Positions 1,959-8,473 of a stretch of 29,767 bases of DNA are shown one piece after another. Positions within the stretch are counted from its first letter, which is position 1. Every line of letters begins with the position of its first letter. Below the pieces are notes generated by a model that did not search any database, was not told where the DNA came from, and saw only the letters and a program-made list of their open reading frames with translations. The stretch comes from a virus (Duplodnaviria > Heunggongvirae > Uroviricota > Caudoviricetes), in IMG/VR virus record IMGVR_UViG_2534681604_000009, one strand, 5' to 3'. The translations under genes were made by a program, and so were the position numbers.

Positions 1959-4406
1959 TTAACCGTCATGCATCATGCTGGCACGGGCGCGCGCACGTTT
2001 ATCCCGCTCGTATTTTTCGAGCGCATCCTGTAACTGGCGGTCAAGCTGTGCCCCCGGCGCAGTACCGCCCTTCAGGCTGATGTGATATTCGTTTTTACTC
2101 TGGTCCACATAAGAGCGACCAGCCGGTGCCGTGACCGGCTGATAAGCCTGATAGCCTGCATAAGAGCTGGTCGCCGGAATATAACCACCGGTGCCATACG
2201 TGGCGGCATTAGTCCTTGCGGCGGTCTGGTCAAGTGTGCCTGACTCTTTGTTGATGACACCGAGTTTTTCCAGTACCCAGTCAATACCACTGCGCAGTTT
2301 GTTGAACGCATTAAGCGGCAGCATCAGCGCGTCAGCCAGTGCCTGCCCGAACATGACGCCCGTGTCACGGCAACGGTTCAGGGTGTCCTGGGTGGCTTTG
2401 ACCGGGGCAATCAGGTTTTTAAACCACTGCCACGCGGCCTGTAACTTTTCACCCAGCCAGTCAAACACCGGCTTAAGTGGCGTGAACAGTTCCCCCACCG
2501 GCGCAAATGCCGCTTTCAGCCCTTCCACCACACCGCCAAAGAATGCGCTGACAGGCTCCCAGTATTTACGGATAAGTAACGCTCCGGCGACAATGGCGGC
2601 CACCACGGCCACTACCGGCCAGCTAATCGCCCCGATGGCCGTCATAACGGCACTGCCAACCGTCGTGAAGATTGCCCCCATTGCGCCTGCTGCTGCGATA
2701 ATGGCATTGATGCCGGTGATAACCGGCCAGGCTACGAGACCAATGGCACCGATGACACCAATCAGCGCCAGTGCACCACCGACAATGAGGCCGATGGTTG
2801 ACGCCAGTGATTTGTTTTTCTGGATCCAGCCGTCGAGTTTTAACACATATTTTGTGGCCGTCTGCGTGAGATTACGCAGTGCGCCTTCCTGCTGGTCAAA
2901 CAAGTCTGTCCCCACCGCCTCATAAGCGGACTGAAACTCCTTAAAGTCACCGCCGAGGTTGTCCTGCATGATATTTACCAGTTCTGCGGTCTTCCCGTCT
3001 GAGGCTTTAAACGCAGCAGTCAGTTTGTCCAGCTTTCCGGTTGACGCGGCAGTCATCAGCACAGCGGCGGCTGAGCTGGCCTCCTCCCCGAAAATAGTTT
3101 TCATGTATTCAGCCTGCTGGGCAGTACCGAGCCGGTTTTTCTCAAAACTGGCCTGCATTTCTTTCAGAATGGTAAATACTGGCCGGGTATTCCCCTTACT
3201 GTCTGAGGTTTTCACGCCAAGCTCTTTGAGTGCATCCCATGCTTTTCCCGTCGGTGCCTGCAGGCGGCTTAACACGGCACGGCTTCCCGTCCCCGCCATT
3301 GAGCCTGTGATTTTTGCATCATGCAGTACCCCGACCATTGCGGCGGTTTCTTCAATGCTGACACCGGCATTTTTTGCCACAGGTGCGGCATAGGTCAGCG
3401 CATCGCTCATGCCGTCAAAATCGGCGGCGGTTTTGTTCATCGTCATGGAGAGAACATCCCCGATATGAGCGACCTTATCGTTTGAAAGCTGAAAGGCGGA
3501 TTTCATCCCCATCAGCAGGGCGGCGTTTTCCTCCATCGTGCGGCGGTTTGCCAGCGCCATGTTCAGCGTGACCGGCGTTGCCGCCTGAATGGCATCAACA
3601 TCCCCACCGGCTTTTGCAATGATAATCTGTGCACCGGCTGCATCATCCGCCGAGGCGGCGGTATTGTCGCCGAGCTGGCGCGCCTGCTTGCGGAGTGCTG
3701 TCATTTCGGCGGAGTCTTTTGCCACTCCTAGCACGGCCTGCAATTCTGAGTTTTTCTGCGCAAACTCATAACCGGGCATCAGCAGCTTAACTCCGGCCAT
3801 CGTTCCCGCCGCCGCAATCCCCACACCGGCAGCGCCCACCGAGGCCATATTTCCGGCCAGCTCCTTTCCTGTCTGATAACGCTGTTTTACTGCGTTAAGT
3901 TTTGCCTGTTGCGCACTGACACGCGCCAGCGCATCACGCTGACGGTTAAGCTGTGTGGTGGTTTCGCTGATACGGTTTTTCAGCCCTCGTTCATCATGCG
4001 CCAGATTACGGGTATTAATACCCGCCTGACTCAATTCCTGACGCTGGCGCTGTACCGACAATCTCAGGCTGTTATATTTCGCCTGTAACTCAGACGCATT
4101 TTTACGCGCGGCTTCCATTGCCTTTGCCTGTGCATTTGTCGGTCGTTCAGTATTTTTAAACTGGACAGCCAGAGCTGCGGCTTCCTGTCTGGCTTTTTTC
4201 AGTTCCTGACCAGTCACGGCGAGCTGTGCGCTGGTCTTGCGAAATCCCTCAATACGGGATGCGTGACCGTTCAGCTCGCGCAGTGATTTTTGTGTTTCCC
4301 GGATATCCCCCGACAGCGACTTACTCGCTGTGCGGATGGATTTAAACGGGCGGGATGCCTGGTCAACAGCCCTGAGCAATACCTGTAATTTTACATTGTT
4401 ACTCAT
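1959..4406 (-). CDS. T: Tail tape measure protein T
   Basis: 815-aa ORF with a coiled-coil-rich N-terminal half and a hydrophobic Gly/Ala-rich central segment. It sits downstream of E/E', which is the standard chaperone then tape-measure arrangement. The size equals P2 gpT. Confidence 0.9.
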   Translation of the reverse strand: MSNNVKLQVLLRAVDQASRPFKSIRTASKSLSGDIRETQKSLRELNGHASRIEGFRKTSAQLAVTGQELKKARQEAAALAVQFKNTERPTNAQAKAMEAARKNASELQAKYNSLRLSVQRQRQELSQAGINTRNLAHDERGLKNRISETTTQLNRQRDALARVSAQQAKLNAVKQRYQTGKELAGNMASVGAAGVGIAAAGTMAGVKLLMPGYEFAQKNSELQAVLGVAKDSAEMTALRKQARQLGDNTAASADDAAGAQIIIAKAGGDVDAIQAATPVTLNMALANRRTMEENAALLMGMKSAFQLSNDKVAHIGDVLSMTMNKTAADFDGMSDALTYAAPVAKNAGVSIEETAAMVGVLHDAKITGSMAGTGSRAVLSRLQAPTGKAWDALKELGVKTSDSKGNTRPVFTILKEMQASFEKNRLGTAQQAEYMKTIFGEEASSAAAVLMTAASTGKLDKLTAAFKASDGKTAELVNIMQDNLGGDFKEFQSAYEAVGTDLFDQQEGALRNLTQTATKYVLKLDGWIQKNKSLASTIGLIVGGALALIGVIGAIGLVAWPVITGINAIIAAAGAMGAIFTTVGSAVMTAIGAISWPVVAVVAAIVAGALLIRKYWEPVSAFFGGVVEGLKAAFAPVGELFTPLKPVFDWLGEKLQAAWQWFKNLIAPVKATQDTLNRCRDTGVMFGQALADALMLPLNAFNKLRSGIDWVLEKLGVINKESGTLDQTAARTNAATYGTGGYIPATSSYAGYQAYQPVTAPAGRSYVDQSKNEYHISLKGGTAPGAQLDRQLQDALEKYERDKRARARASMMHDG

Positions 4407-5413: not shown

Positions 5414-6604
5414 TTAATTGCTGTTAACCGAAGTGACCAGACTTGCCAGGTATCTGGAAGTAATACGCTGGCGCAGGGTCAGATTTTCAAGAGGAGGCAC
5501 CGGGGTATAGTCGTAGTCGATATACAGTTTTCCGGCCTTGAGGGTTTCCGCATCGTTGGATTCTTCGCTGAACCAGCATGTGCCATCCACGATATAACCG
5601 TTGTTTTTCAGCTCACGGAATTTGGCATTGATGCCGTCAATGATGTCGCGAATCAGCGTTGCGGTGATGGGCTTATCAATAGCCCACATGTGCGCCTCAG
5701 CCATAGTGTCGGCCAGTACCTGCGCGGTGCGGGTGTAGCTTTCAAAGAGGAACAGCGGGTCATCGGAGCAGGTACGGTTACCCCAGAATCGGAAACCGTC
5801 GCGGCGAACCAGCGTTGTGACGCCTGCCTCGTTCAACAGGTCAGCATCAGTGCCGGACTTCTGCAAATCCCAGAATACAGATGCGCTGATGCCGGTAACA
5901 CCGTTTACCCCGACGTTGGACAGCGTTTTATGCCAGCCCTGCTCCTGGTCGATTTTAGCGCGCAGACCCAGCGCACGGGCGGTGGCATACGCGGTGGCGG
6001 TGGTACTGGTGACCGTATCCCATGCGAGGAAATCCGGCCAGATGACCATCAGCTCACGCTGGCTGAAATTCTGGCGGTAGGCTTTCACCTCGGAAATGGT
6101 TTTACAGCCCCATGCGCTGATATACCCGAATGCATTCAGTTCCTGGCATACCGATGCCAGTGCAACAGCCACCTCTTTGGTGTCCAGCCCCGGCACACCA
6201 AGAATGCGCGGTTTAACGCCGGTAACCGACTCAGCCCCCATCAGGGCTTTCAGTCCGGTGTACTGACCGTTTTCGTCGGTGGTGCCGATGATATTGGAAA
6301 CGGTCTGCGCGAGTTTCGTTTCCTCGTCGTCGCCGGTGCCGTCTTCCACACGCACGACAACGGTGACCGGTTTTGACTGGTCGGCGATGGCCTGCAACGA
6401 TGCCGCCAGCGTGCCTTTTTTACCAGCCTTTGCAATTGCGCTCTGCACATTGGTAATCAGCACCGGTTTATTGAGGGGGAAGGTTTCCGCATCCGCATCG
6501 CTGGCCGTGCAGACCATGCCGACAATGGCAGTGGATACGGTGGAAATGACGCGGGTGCCGTCGTTAATCTCCAGCACCTGCACGCCGTGATGATAGTCAC
6601 TCAT
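5414..6604 (-). CDS. FI: Contractile tail sheath protein FI
   Basis: 396-aa ORF and first gene of the FI-FII-E-T-U-D block. A GGAG sequence lies upstream of the ATG at 6602..6604 (- strand). Confidence 0.9.
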   Translation of the reverse strand: MSDYHHGVQVLEINDGTRVISTVSTAIVGMVCTASDADAETFPLNKPVLITNVQSAIAKAGKKGTLAASLQAIADQSKPVTVVVRVEDGTGDDEETKLAQTVSNIIGTTDENGQYTGLKALMGAESVTGVKPRILGVPGLDTKEVAVALASVCQELNAFGYISAWGCKTISEVKAYRQNFSQRELMVIWPDFLAWDTVTSTTATAYATARALGLRAKIDQEQGWHKTLSNVGVNGVTGISASVFWDLQKSGTDADLLNEAGVTTLVRRDGFRFWGNRTCSDDPLFLFESYTRTAQVLADTMAEAHMWAIDKPITATLIRDIIDGINAKFRELKNNGYIVDGTCWFSEESNDAETLKAGKLYIDYDYTPVPPLENLTLRQRITSRYLASLVTSVNSN

Positions 6605-6700
6605 CCGTTTAACTCCGTGGTTAATGGGTGCAACTATTGTCTGTTGGGCAGTGCATGAGACGCTATTTGACCTGACTGGTCAGTGGATGAAACAACAGAT
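6605..6700 (-). promoter_or_regulatory. Region expected to hold the Ogr-dependent late promoter of the FI operon
   Basis: Placed by synteny with the P2 late promoter P_F. I could not find a clean TGT-N12-ACA element; a CTGACTGGTCAG palindrome lies around 6671..6683. Confidence 0.3.
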
Positions 6701-6729
6701 AAAGAAAAGGCGGGCAATCAGCCCGCCTG
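6701..6729 (-). terminator. GC hairpin (GGCGGGC-aatca-GCCCGCC) with a U-tract on the - strand; possible insulator or terminator upstream of FI
   Basis: The inverted repeat is at 6709..6715 and 6721..6727. The + strand aaagaaaa at 6701..6708 gives UUUUCUUU after the stem on the - strand. Confidence 0.35.
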
Positions 6730-6781
6730 CCTTGATTTGTACTCACTCAGTTTCCAACTGACAAATTACGTAACCAAAACC

Positions 6782-6797
6782 CTGTCAAATCTGACAG
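6782..6797. repeat. Inverted repeat CTGTCA-aatc-TGACAG
   Basis: Read directly from the sequence at 6782..6797, about 150 bp upstream of the cargo ORF. Confidence 0.5.
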
Positions 6798-6818
6798 TCT
6801 GCTTTGAGCGAGGAGCGG

Positions 6819-6840
6819 ACGATGAATTCGAATTCATCGT
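6819..6840. repeat. Perfect 22-bp palindrome ACGATGAATTC|GAATTCATCGT (candidate operator)
   Basis: Read directly from the sequence; it is its own reverse complement and contains two abutting GAATTC hexamers. It lies about 105 bp upstream of the cargo ORF start. Confidence 0.5.
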
Positions 6841-6945
6841 AAAAATTTTTATGGCCAAGTAGCTCTATAAGGCCTTTCATTAAAGCTATCTTTGTCACAA
6901 AGCTTATGCAAAAAGTGACTTTATCTTTAAATCTAATAAGATAAC

Positions 6946-7761
6946 ATGATTGACGAAACTCCAAAATCAACTTTACTTAAGCAAAAACGAGGCATGCAAT
7001 TGAAAAAGATTAGGAAAATCAATAAAAAAATCATTGATGAATTGCTATCTCTTCGCGAATCAAGAGGAGCTATAGAAGACTTCTCAATGTCTTTCCTACT
7101 AAATTTTGCAGAAAATTGTCGACTTATGCATTCACTTATTTCAACGAAAGATAAGAAAATAGATATTTACAAAACAGCATATCGACAATATTTTGTATTT
7201 CTAATCAGTTGCTGGGAAACCTATTTTAGAGACGTTTTTGTTTTCGTGCACTCAGTTGATGAATCTAGAATTGCAACACTACTATCTAAAATGAGAACAG
7301 AAACATCTATCAATATAAATACCGAGATAAATCTATCAGAATTATTGAGTAAAAGCTTTAACTTTCAAAACTTAAACGACCTTGAAGAAGCATATAATGG
7401 CATGTGGGGTGAGAGCTTTTTAGACTACATATGTACAACTAATATATCGCCTTGCGGTCTGAGTGGCCAGATTTCCCAAGGTTTATCGATAGAAAATATA
7501 TTTCCAGACTGGAGAGCCCTCATAGAGGAAGCATTTTACATTAGGCACAAAGTGGTTCACGATGCAAACTTCAGACCTAAAGTCAACATTGAATTAATCA
7601 GTAAGGTAGAGACTTTGTTTTTAATAATCCCTCAATTTGCAACGCATATCATATCAGAAAGATTCAACTTAAAAAAAATCGTCATTTCAGATGGTCAAAA
7701 TAACCATACCTATATTCTCAATGTCAGTGATATATTATCTGATGATTGGGTTGTTAGTTGA
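6946..7761 (+). CDS. Hypothetical protein, AT-rich cargo ORF at the Z/fun-equivalent variable locus (candidate defence or abortive-infection gene)
   Basis: 271-aa ORF in opposite orientation to the flanking late genes, visibly AT-rich (about 30 percent GC in the 60-nt blocks I counted). It lies between G and FI, the position of Z/fun in P2. An R-x4-H motif (IRHKVVHD, codons 7543..7560) is present. The start is uncertain: 6946 has a weak SD and an alternative ATG is at 6994. Confidence 0.7.
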   Translation: MIDETPKSTLLKQKRGMQLKKIRKINKKIIDELLSLRESRGAIEDFSMSFLLNFAENCRLMHSLISTKDKKIDIYKTAYRQYFVFLISCWETYFRDVFVFVHSVDESRIATLLSKMRTETSININTEINLSELLSKSFNFQNLNDLEEAYNGMWGESFLDYICTTNISPCGLSGQISQGLSIENIFPDWRALIEEAFYIRHKVVHDANFRPKVNIELISKVETLFLIIPQFATHIISERFNLKKIVISDGQNNHTYILNVSDILSDDWVVS

Positions 7762-7784
7762 TGATGGAATTGTAAGTATATTAA

Positions 7785-7834
7785 CACAAAAAACAAAGAA
7801 ACTAATGAAGTCCGCTTCTGGCACAGAGCGGACT
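7785..7834 (-). terminator. Rho-independent terminator after G (end of the V-W-J-I-H-G operon)
   Basis: Stem aGTCCGCT (7809..7816), loop tctggcacag, stem AGCGGACt (7827..7834). On the - strand it is followed by the U-rich tract UUCAUUAGUUUCUUUGUUUUUUGUGUU. A weaker T-run lies on the + strand side, so it may act in both directions. Confidence 0.5.
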
Positions 7835-7894
7835 GTCAGATTAGTTTTTACTCTGTGCCATAGATGAGTAATCTCACACCAGATCTAATACGAT

Positions 7895-8473
7895 TTATTG
7901 TGGCATTTCAGGCCATTCTATATCCGGAGCATCTTCCGGCTGAACGCGATTCAGTAGCACACGGTATTTTTTCCAGTGTGTCAGACTTAACTTTTCTTCC
8001 TCGGTAGCCATATCTAAATCGACAGCATCCTGCAGCGTGGCAATAATTTCACCGGCATATGCAATCTGCTCTTTCCTCTGAGACTCCGCCGCTCTGACAA
8101 GTGCATCACGCTCTGCATTCTCATCATTCACCCACGCATTTCCGTTCCATTTCTGATAATCCCCATCCGGGGAAATGGCTGTCACGTCAGGTGGTAATGC
8201 ACCAAGTTCAGAAATATATATGGCTGCTCCTGTTTTTGTTTCATAGACAGTTTTCCCACGATGGTCCTCTATCAAATGCCATTTCATTTCGTCTGCATTG
8301 AAAACGGCAGCATAGCCAGCCGGAATATCTGGAGGTGCAATGTCTGTACTGTTTGCAGGCAGACCAGTATGCGGCGGAATATATGCATCGCTTTCGCCAA
8401 TAAATTCATTGCTTCCATCCAGTAAATTAAATACACGAATAGTTTGTGCCTCTGCACTCATTCTGAAAGTCAT
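7895..8473 (-). CDS. G: Tail fibre assembly chaperone G
   Basis: 192-aa ORF immediately downstream of H, with a TAATG stop/start overlap. Position matches P2 gpG. Confidence 0.85.

Follow-up and report, generated by a model that had tools for sequence, protein, structure and literature searches.

The inverted repeats of the Z/fun hotspot of phage P2 were reportedly described by Nilsson, Karlsson & Haggard-Ljungquist in 2004, in Mol Biol Evol 21:1. A review that cites Nilsson et al. 2004 states that fun is flanked by inverted repeats which enable site-specific recombination (PMC8987985). The locus considered here, within a window (the whole stretch of DNA that was analysed, 29,767 nt, from IMG/VR record IMGVR_UViG_2534681604_000009), has the same position between genes G and FI and the same sequences as that hotspot: the repeats of GenBank AJ512676 end exactly at the two 24-bp elements designated B and A below, and between otherwise near-identical backbones the cargo differs, with the break exactly at these repeat ends. 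As in the P2 hotspot, a low-GC foreign cargo with its own promoter (a predicted one here) lies between the repeats, and other enterobacterial prophages carry this cargo as well. It differs from the P2 hotspot in that the cargo is a HEPN gene of the RiboL-PSP type and not the fun/orf30 cassette, and in that the repeat is recognisable over 33 nt only. The border repeat is thus a feature described before and not a new one, and the cassette is a new cargo of the already known Z/fun hotspot. Two palindromes beside the cassette joint (palindrome 1, 6782–6797; palindrome 2, 6819–6840), which had been noticed in a sequence-only reading of the window, are absent from the published description of the hotspot as represented by one review and by the GenBank features.

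The morons of temperate phages (Juhala et al. 2000; Cumby et al. 2012) provide a second comparison. Like a moron, the cassette is a single non-essential gene of lower G+C content placed between two conserved late genes and transcribed against them, and it has its own putative promoter, with hairpins at both ends; unlike morons, its borders are not generic promoter/terminator signals, but conserved, sequence-specific 24-bp elements common to several phage families. Integron cassettes and their attC sites are a third: here too cassettes occur in arrays split by imperfect palindromes (B, 15–27 nt and A, ~66 bp in total), and the complementary extreme flanks, ...AAY on the 5' and RTT... on the 3' side, recall RYYYAAC and GTTRRRY. 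In contrast to attC, A and B are conserved in sequence and not in structure alone, and each half is itself a hairpin; moreover, in P2-like phages the two halves stand on either side of the cargo and are inverted in order. The loci inspected have no annotated IntI integrase or attI. The system resembles an integron in outline, and membership is not claimed.

The window is a P2-like prophage with a low-GC insert that holds a single plus-strand ORF (6946–7761) and is flanked by FI and by the tail-fibre genes G and H. The placement of the locus between FI and G (Z/fun) in the sequence-only reading was correct, as judged from the ORFs, the annotation of relatives and Pfam matches in one relative (L185). 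Its left neighbour in the backbone, the tail sheath gene FI (5414–6604, minus strand), is an ORF that matches, at ~96% DNA identity, sequences annotated as phage tail sheath protein in L003–L006, and Pfam Phage_sheath matches the FI gene in L185. The right neighbour, the tail-fibre assembly gene G (7895–8473, minus strand), is an ORF whose relatives are annotated as tail fiber assembly protein; Caudo_TAP matches gene G in L185. Between the FI late-promoter region and the hotspot, the backbone has a strong bidirectional intrinsic terminator at 6708–6728, with an 8-bp stem (7 G-C pairs), T-runs on both strands and fold energies of −18.4 and −17.7 kcal/mol (z −3.6 and −3.2), which is kept in all P2-like relatives. 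A near-perfect palindrome, TGACCTGACTGGTCA, was seen at 6670–6684, a short way upstream of FI and within its late-promoter region; P2-like relatives retain it with small changes, and it may be the activator site of the late promoter.

The FI-proximal inverted repeat of the Z/fun locus (6730–6820) belongs to the backbone; it is homologous to repeat_region 1942–2032 of AJ512676, and is kept in P2-like phages with other cargo. It ends with border element A, GTCTGCT-TTGAGCGAGG-AGCGGAC (6797–6820, plus strand), a 24-bp hairpin that forms the left crossover region (RNA fold of the plus strand, −12.3 kcal/mol, z −3.1). Its counterpart in the right crossover region is border element B, GTCCGCT-TCTGGCACAG-AGCGGAC (7810–7833, plus strand), a 24-bp hairpin with which the G-proximal repeat ends on its inner side (−17.2 kcal/mol, z −4.2). 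The inverted repeat is extended outward by TGTCAGATT at 7834–7842, whose partner is AATCTGACA at 6788–6796. The reverse complement of 6788–6820 was identical to 7810–7842 at 28 of 33 positions; beyond these inner 33 nt, the arms in this window aligned no better than shuffled sequence. In AJ512676 (the Z-region of P2-EC30) the “left inverted repeat” ends exactly at B, and the second repeat region begins exactly at A and extends to the backbone terminator; positions 6730–6820 and 7810 onwards of the window are homologous to both repeat regions. Searching the literature for the border sequences as text gave no matches. A tRNA-like and a sigma-54 reading of element B were considered and dropped, as neither matched by eye. 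A separate perfect 10-bp inverted repeat, TGGCACAGAG / CTCTGTGCCA (7819–7828 and 7851–7860, 22 nt apart), overlaps B, and its hairpin would be mutually exclusive with that of B itself; the partner CTCTGTGCC was found again downstream of B at many other loci.

The joints of the cassette were observed directly. Backbones with other cargo (E. coli R8, P24A7b, fiAA91-ss and a P2 isolate) were homologous to the window from FI to ...AAATCTGACAGTCTGCTTTGAGCGAGGAGCGGAC, ending at 6820. In P2-like backbones with other cargo, homology reached 6820 (...GAGCGAGGAGCGGAC), divergence was complete from 6821, and homology resumed at GTCCGCTTCTGGCACAGAGCGGACTGTCAGATTAG, from 7810. The related loci L003–L006 and many IMG/VR loci likewise diverged directly after ...GCGGAC and directly before GTCCGCT.... 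A 97.3–97.7% identical counterpart of the cassette itself (6801–7829) was recovered from phage PhiR11_1 (for which a literature search returned nothing relevant) and from 28 of the 5,426 complete E. coli genomes; these copies were always in lambdoid prophages, close to the side tail-fibre genes, for instance at the bioA/ybhB attachment site. Judged from the bases at which the lambdoid and P2-like versions differ, the left crossover falls inside A, between 6806 and 6820, and the right one inside B, at or before 7825. A further locus, L186, carries the same cassette with a perfect palindrome 2 in a different P2-like backbone that has no palindrome 1; there the cassette runs into B, which is separated by 18 nt from an A-like element with a second cassette behind it.

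Because homology breaks at 6820/6821 and the cassette homology of the lambdoid prophages begins at 6801, palindrome 1 is assigned to the backbone and palindrome 2 to the cargo. The G/FI-junction comparison across cargos that had been suggested with the sequence-only reading therefore gave a divided answer: palindrome 1 goes with the backbone, and palindrome 2 with the cargo except for its first 2 bases. The alternative that the palindromes mark a recombination junction, at which the cargo was acquired, was borne out by the homology break and by the lambdoid homologues of 6801–7829 in so far as a junction does lie here; what defines this junction is the border repeat already known, rather than the palindromes. 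Read from the sequence, the region is the left joint of a cassette (“moron”) that would have been swapped into the P2-like Z/fun hotspot, without a two-site operator. Homologous recombination over 16–20 bp and site-specific recombination would be expected to leave identical joints.

The cargo ORF (6946–7761, plus strand; 271 aa as called) encodes a HEPN-fold protein of the RiboL-PSP-HEPN type with the R-x4-6-H motif and the four-helix HEPN core that characterise the HEPN superfamily, and its G+C is about 0.30 vs. 0.55. A DNA-binding domain was not seen in the protein; the single-gene cassette encodes no regulator, and none of the PADLOC models matches it. Unlike HEPN toxins and abortive-infection proteins (HEPN/MNT, AbiV, the HEPN domain of Csm6), the cassette is without a partner antitoxin gene. 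The cargo is a putative defence-type gene. In lambdoid prophages (L001 1105–3669; L002 3105–5669) an FRG-domain gene and a 350-aa gene precede the HEPN cassette; only the HEPN gene moved into the P2-like locus, and so it presumably works alone.

Homologues of the cargo protein are ~254 aa long and upstream DNA homology stops near 6963, so that the start is probably ATG 6994 or TTG 7000 and the 271-aa call, by this reading of the sequence, probably 16–18 codons too long. GAGG precedes TTG 7000 by 7 nt, and ATG 6946 has no obvious ribosome-binding site. The distances earlier given from the palindromes to the 271-aa ORF are right for ATG 6946; with the probable later start, both palindromes lie ~50 nt further upstream. 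The best hit of a position-weight scan was a sigma-70-like promoter candidate, GTGACT-16-TAAGAT (6915–6942, plus strand; predicted start near 6949), and a stricter consensus scan gave no plus-strand promoter in the leader. From the predicted start, the palindrome centres are ~120 bp (palindrome 2) and ~160 bp (palindrome 1) upstream. Among 5,426 E. coli genomes the leader (6815–6960) was found solely with this cassette, and it was not found in plasmids; the idea that the leader is a portable regulatory module was rejected, as it occurs with no other gene. Rfam returned only a sub-threshold PrrB/RsmZ match (20 bits vs. a gathering score of 44), and a tRNA/tmRNA search found none.

Palindrome 1, CTGTCAaatcTGACAG, had been described as CTGTCA-aatc-TGACAG and is exactly at 6782–6797, wholly inside the FI-proximal repeat of the backbone. 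As a structure it is unremarkable: hairpins of this kind (a 4-nt loop and arms of 6 bp or more) number 22 in the window, vs. 8.6 ± 2.8 in shuffles. Its variation between copies was seen directly. CTGTCA is present in only one of 29 distinct P2-like left flanks (this one), CTATCA in 16, and the others vary; L186 has CTATTA at the position, and the palindrome is missing from L186 and from 9/9 lambdoid copies. As 28 of the 29 flanks and L186 differ, the hairpin represents a lineage-specific, single-base (A-to-G) change, and the palindrome is perfect in this lineage only. No second copy was present in the window with up to 3 mismatches allowed. The sequence CTGT-N8-ACAG, once in the window at 6782, could be taken for a LexA (SOS) box that would make the cargo or the neighbouring late promoter damage-inducible; however, 30 kb should hold ~0.45 such sites by chance (29767/4^8), and the LexA consensus, TACTGTATATATATACAGTA, is matched at only 10 of 20 positions. 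Further against a LexA box, the CTG is absent from 28 of 29 related flanks, the palindrome lies ~130 bp upstream of the promoter candidate, and it is absent from the other hosts of the same cassette. We consider damage-inducible control through palindrome 1 extremely improbable. When the minus strand is read, GGTTTTGGTT comes after palindrome 1; as RNA, the stem of the palindrome would persist in most relatives by means of a G-U pair (CUGUCA/UGAUAG), and on that strand it could act as a predicted weak back-up terminator ahead of 6708–6728.

Palindrome 2, ACGATGAATTCGAATTCATCGT (6819–6840), takes its first 2 nt from the last 2 of A, and its other 20 nt are the start of the cassette. The claim of a perfect 22-bp palindrome was confirmed (11-nt arms, 100% complementary, no spacer), and it is the longest spacerless palindrome in the window; the second-longest perfect one, CGGGTATTAATACCCG (4009–4024, 8-bp arms), is inside the tape-measure ORF 1959–4406. 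Of 200 shuffles that preserved the dinucleotides, 2 gave arms of at least 11 nt; calculated analytically, 0.007 such palindromes would be expected per window and 0.0008 in the cargo of 989 bp. All nine lambdoid copies examined have ACGCTGAATTCGAATTCATCGT (starting ACGCTG...), in which 10 of 11 pairs are matched. This 10/11 form, with 0.24 expected per window and 0.024 per cargo, and with at least one in 27% of 300 block shuffles, is much less remarkable than the perfect form. The palindrome was perfect in 9/9 other P2-borne copies, i.e., seven contigs identical over 6730–6946, one short contig identical where covered, and L186. The 14-bp core, TGAATTCGAATTCA, was invariant in all 19 copies; since identity between the cassette copies is never below 97%, the presence or lack of conservation in this comparison is uninformative about selection on the dyad. 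Even with up to 3 mismatches permitted, palindrome 2 occurs only once in the window; it is also absent 5' of homologues at 79–88% protein identity, whose upstream DNA is unrelated beyond ~30 nt. The species-representative genomes gave no copy of palindrome 2 and no relative of the cargo protein. Owing to the dyad of palindrome 2, the same peptide, D-E-F-E-F-I-V, is encoded on both strands across it, by ORFs 6683–6862 (plus) and 6785–6970 (minus); there is no evidence that either ORF is a gene. Directly after palindrome 2 lies an A5T5 tract (6841–6850), itself palindromic and likely an intrinsic bend.

These features could be those of an operator or upstream site at palindrome 2 for a dimeric transcription factor that controls the cassette's own promoter. 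As the cassette has no regulator gene of its own and is carried by two unrelated phage backbones, such a factor would have to come from the host. A perfect 22-bp dyad is rare by chance, its 14-bp core is identical across all copies, the A5T5 tract adjoins it, the only plausible promoter lies downstream of it, and TGAAT-N4-ATTCA is present once in the window. ARG boxes have the form TGAAT-N4-ATTCA with an A/T centre, and palindrome 2 presumably resembles both an ARG box and the LacI-family operators with a central CG. For ArgR, however, there is no tandem box 3 bp away (the 18-mers at 6800–6817 and 6842–6859 are unlike a box), and the centre is TCGA and not A/T-rich. More generally, palindrome 2 has the dyad symmetry of an operator, but its centre is ~120 bp upstream of the predicted start and it neither overlaps nor adjoins the promoter predicted at 6915–6942; its outer arm is mismatched in 9/9 lambdoid copies; and it was found neither upstream of homologues nor elsewhere in the window. 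Neither palindrome is kept with the gene with both half-sites intact, and no cognate regulator nearby or regulon sites were found. The proposal that the palindromes bind a dedicated dimeric regulator was therefore not supported, given the ~120 bp to the promoter, the lack of second sites and the lack of an encoded regulator; their treatment as paired elements also failed, since they do not travel together and neither L186 nor the lambdoid copies have palindrome 1. With the copies all 97% identical or more, we still allow for a host-factor site at palindrome 2 and regard it as unlikely.

Palindrome 2 might instead work as an RNA or single-stranded DNA hairpin and shield the 5' edge of the cassette, as a weak terminator or as an insulator, from incoming plus-strand transcription. 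A simple scan did list it as terminator-like on the plus strand, its RNA hairpin has a 9-bp stem of −9.8 kcal/mol, and in lambdoid prophages there is a plus-strand gene upstream of it. The scan's terminator call, however, is due to the A5T5 tract; five A precede the five T, so that no U-run directly follows the stem, and the stem has only 3 G-C pairs (z −1.3), in place of the G+C-rich stem with a direct U-run of an intrinsic terminator. The lambdoid copies, the sole context with an upstream plus-strand gene, all have a C-A mismatch in the stem, whereas in the P2-like context nothing is transcribed toward palindrome 2 on the plus strand. Nor were hairpins significantly enriched just after A in other cargos, when the first 50 nt of 31 cargos were compared with internal windows (p 0.06 and 0.36). 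A hairpin function of this kind appears to us decidedly improbable.

Quasi-palindrome mutation by template-switching is reportedly the subject of Ripley 1982 and of Dutra & Lovett 2006. In this process, replication template-switching turns imperfect inverted repeats perfect by single-base changes. Both palindromes are, in like manner, one base away from their relatives, imperfect to perfect, and so bear the signature of the process; the direction is clear for palindrome 1 (imperfect in 28 of 29 relatives), and for palindrome 2 the ancestral form could be either. We consider it probable, on balance, that the cassette joint simply has a quasi-palindrome on each side, each made perfect in this lineage by a single base change, and neither with a dedicated regulatory role. 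According to this explanation, cassettes would be exchanged between phages through crossovers within A and B, and the single-gene HEPN cassette, also present in lambdoid prophages, would have replaced the former content between A and B. Palindrome 1 would be a part of the backbone repeat, perfected in this lineage by one A-to-G change; palindrome 2 would be a quasi-palindrome made of the first 20 bp of the cassette and the last 2 bp of A, and perfect in the P2-borne copies; and both would have gained their perfect form through template-switching during replication. We infer the exchange mechanism, the template-switch origin and the absence of function from the joints, from the element to which each palindrome belongs and from the variation between copies, which were seen directly, and it is most likely that neither palindrome has a dedicated regulatory role. 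Against this explanation stand the rarity of a perfect 22-bp palindrome (2/200 shuffles; 0.0008 expected in the cargo), the unchanged core in 19/19 copies, and the A5T5 tract next to palindrome 2, which is typical of promoter-upstream DNA.

As a regulatory finding the palindromes carry little weight, for they are not a unit and nothing ties them to control of the cargo. Of use is the precise structure of a cassette swap in a phage defence hotspot that is well known, with the same HEPN cassette in lambdoid and P2-like prophages and both crossovers within the 24-bp border elements. The wide spread of these elements is a more interesting lead than the palindromes: they stand at more than 100 distinct sites and sometimes link cassettes into arrays. 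This gives a testable handle on the movement of defence genes between unrelated prophages, and the border repeats could serve to delimit cargo cassettes computationally, replacing reliance on flanking genes.

In an exact-pattern scan, element A was found in 55 IMG/VR loci and element B in at least 120; the loci examined contained 103 distinct A sites and at least 145 distinct B sites, which takes both elements far beyond the P2 Z/fun locus. At the 67 A sites with 25 nt available on both sides, 27 different cargos directly followed ...GCGGAC and 20 upstream contexts preceded A, with 5 cargos standing behind at least two of these contexts. The cargo start after A tends to R-T-T (T at +2 in 91% and at +3 in 67%), and the cargo end before B to A-A-Y (A at −3 in 74% and at −2 in 90%), so that the inverted repeat reaches 3 nt into the cargo. 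Both A and B may be read as 9-6-9 sites, in which inverted arms of 9 bp enclose a centre of 6 bp; this centre is GAGCGA in A and TGGCAC in B.

Sites for ArgR and PepA adjoin cer, and palindrome 2 could similarly be an accessory-protein site beside a core site A, aiding a site-specific recombinase for this cassette. It abuts A and overlaps its end by 2 nt, A and B can be read as core-like sites of the 9-6-9 form, the flanks favour R-T-T after A and A-A-Y before B, and site-specific recombination has been proposed for this locus in the literature (PMC8987985). But the 26 other cargos found after A start with unrelated sequences, with no enrichment of hairpins there, and palindrome 2 is therefore not a general part of the site; in addition, no recombinase for A/B exchange was identified, and short-homology recombination accounts for the joints equally well. 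An accessory role of palindrome 2 is in our estimation very improbable. A broader proposal takes A and B as two heterospecific core sites of a putative recombinase, i.e., as a natural “recombinase-mediated cassette exchange”, with palindrome 2 as a cassette-specific accessory or regulatory site. It fits the evidence equally well as short-homology recombination plus chance, and taken as a whole we hold it to be quite unlikely. If true, P2-like, lambdoid and Rac-like prophages would trade accessory and defence cassettes through this core-site system, which would also build small B-18 nt-A arrays. Nilsson et al. are said to have already proposed site-specific exchange at the Z/fun locus in 2004, and what would be new is the breadth, the core-site reading and any role of the palindrome.

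Adjacent cassettes were connected by 13 distinct B-(15–27 nt)-A units. Tandem units of this type were seen at L186 2360–2430, at L001 3957–4020, and in L114, L129, L090, L149 and others. One P2-like Z/fun locus holds an array of two cassettes, the HEPN cassette and then a Zn-ADH plus LysR cassette. In E. coli ATCC 43896, a MFS transporter / ChaC-like / LysR cassette lies between A and B (L073 9356–12445), within the nin-region island of a Rac-like prophage; the same MFS-ChaC-LysR cargo start stands behind A in a P2-like Z locus (L034), and therefore cassettes other than the HEPN cassette are also shared across phage families.
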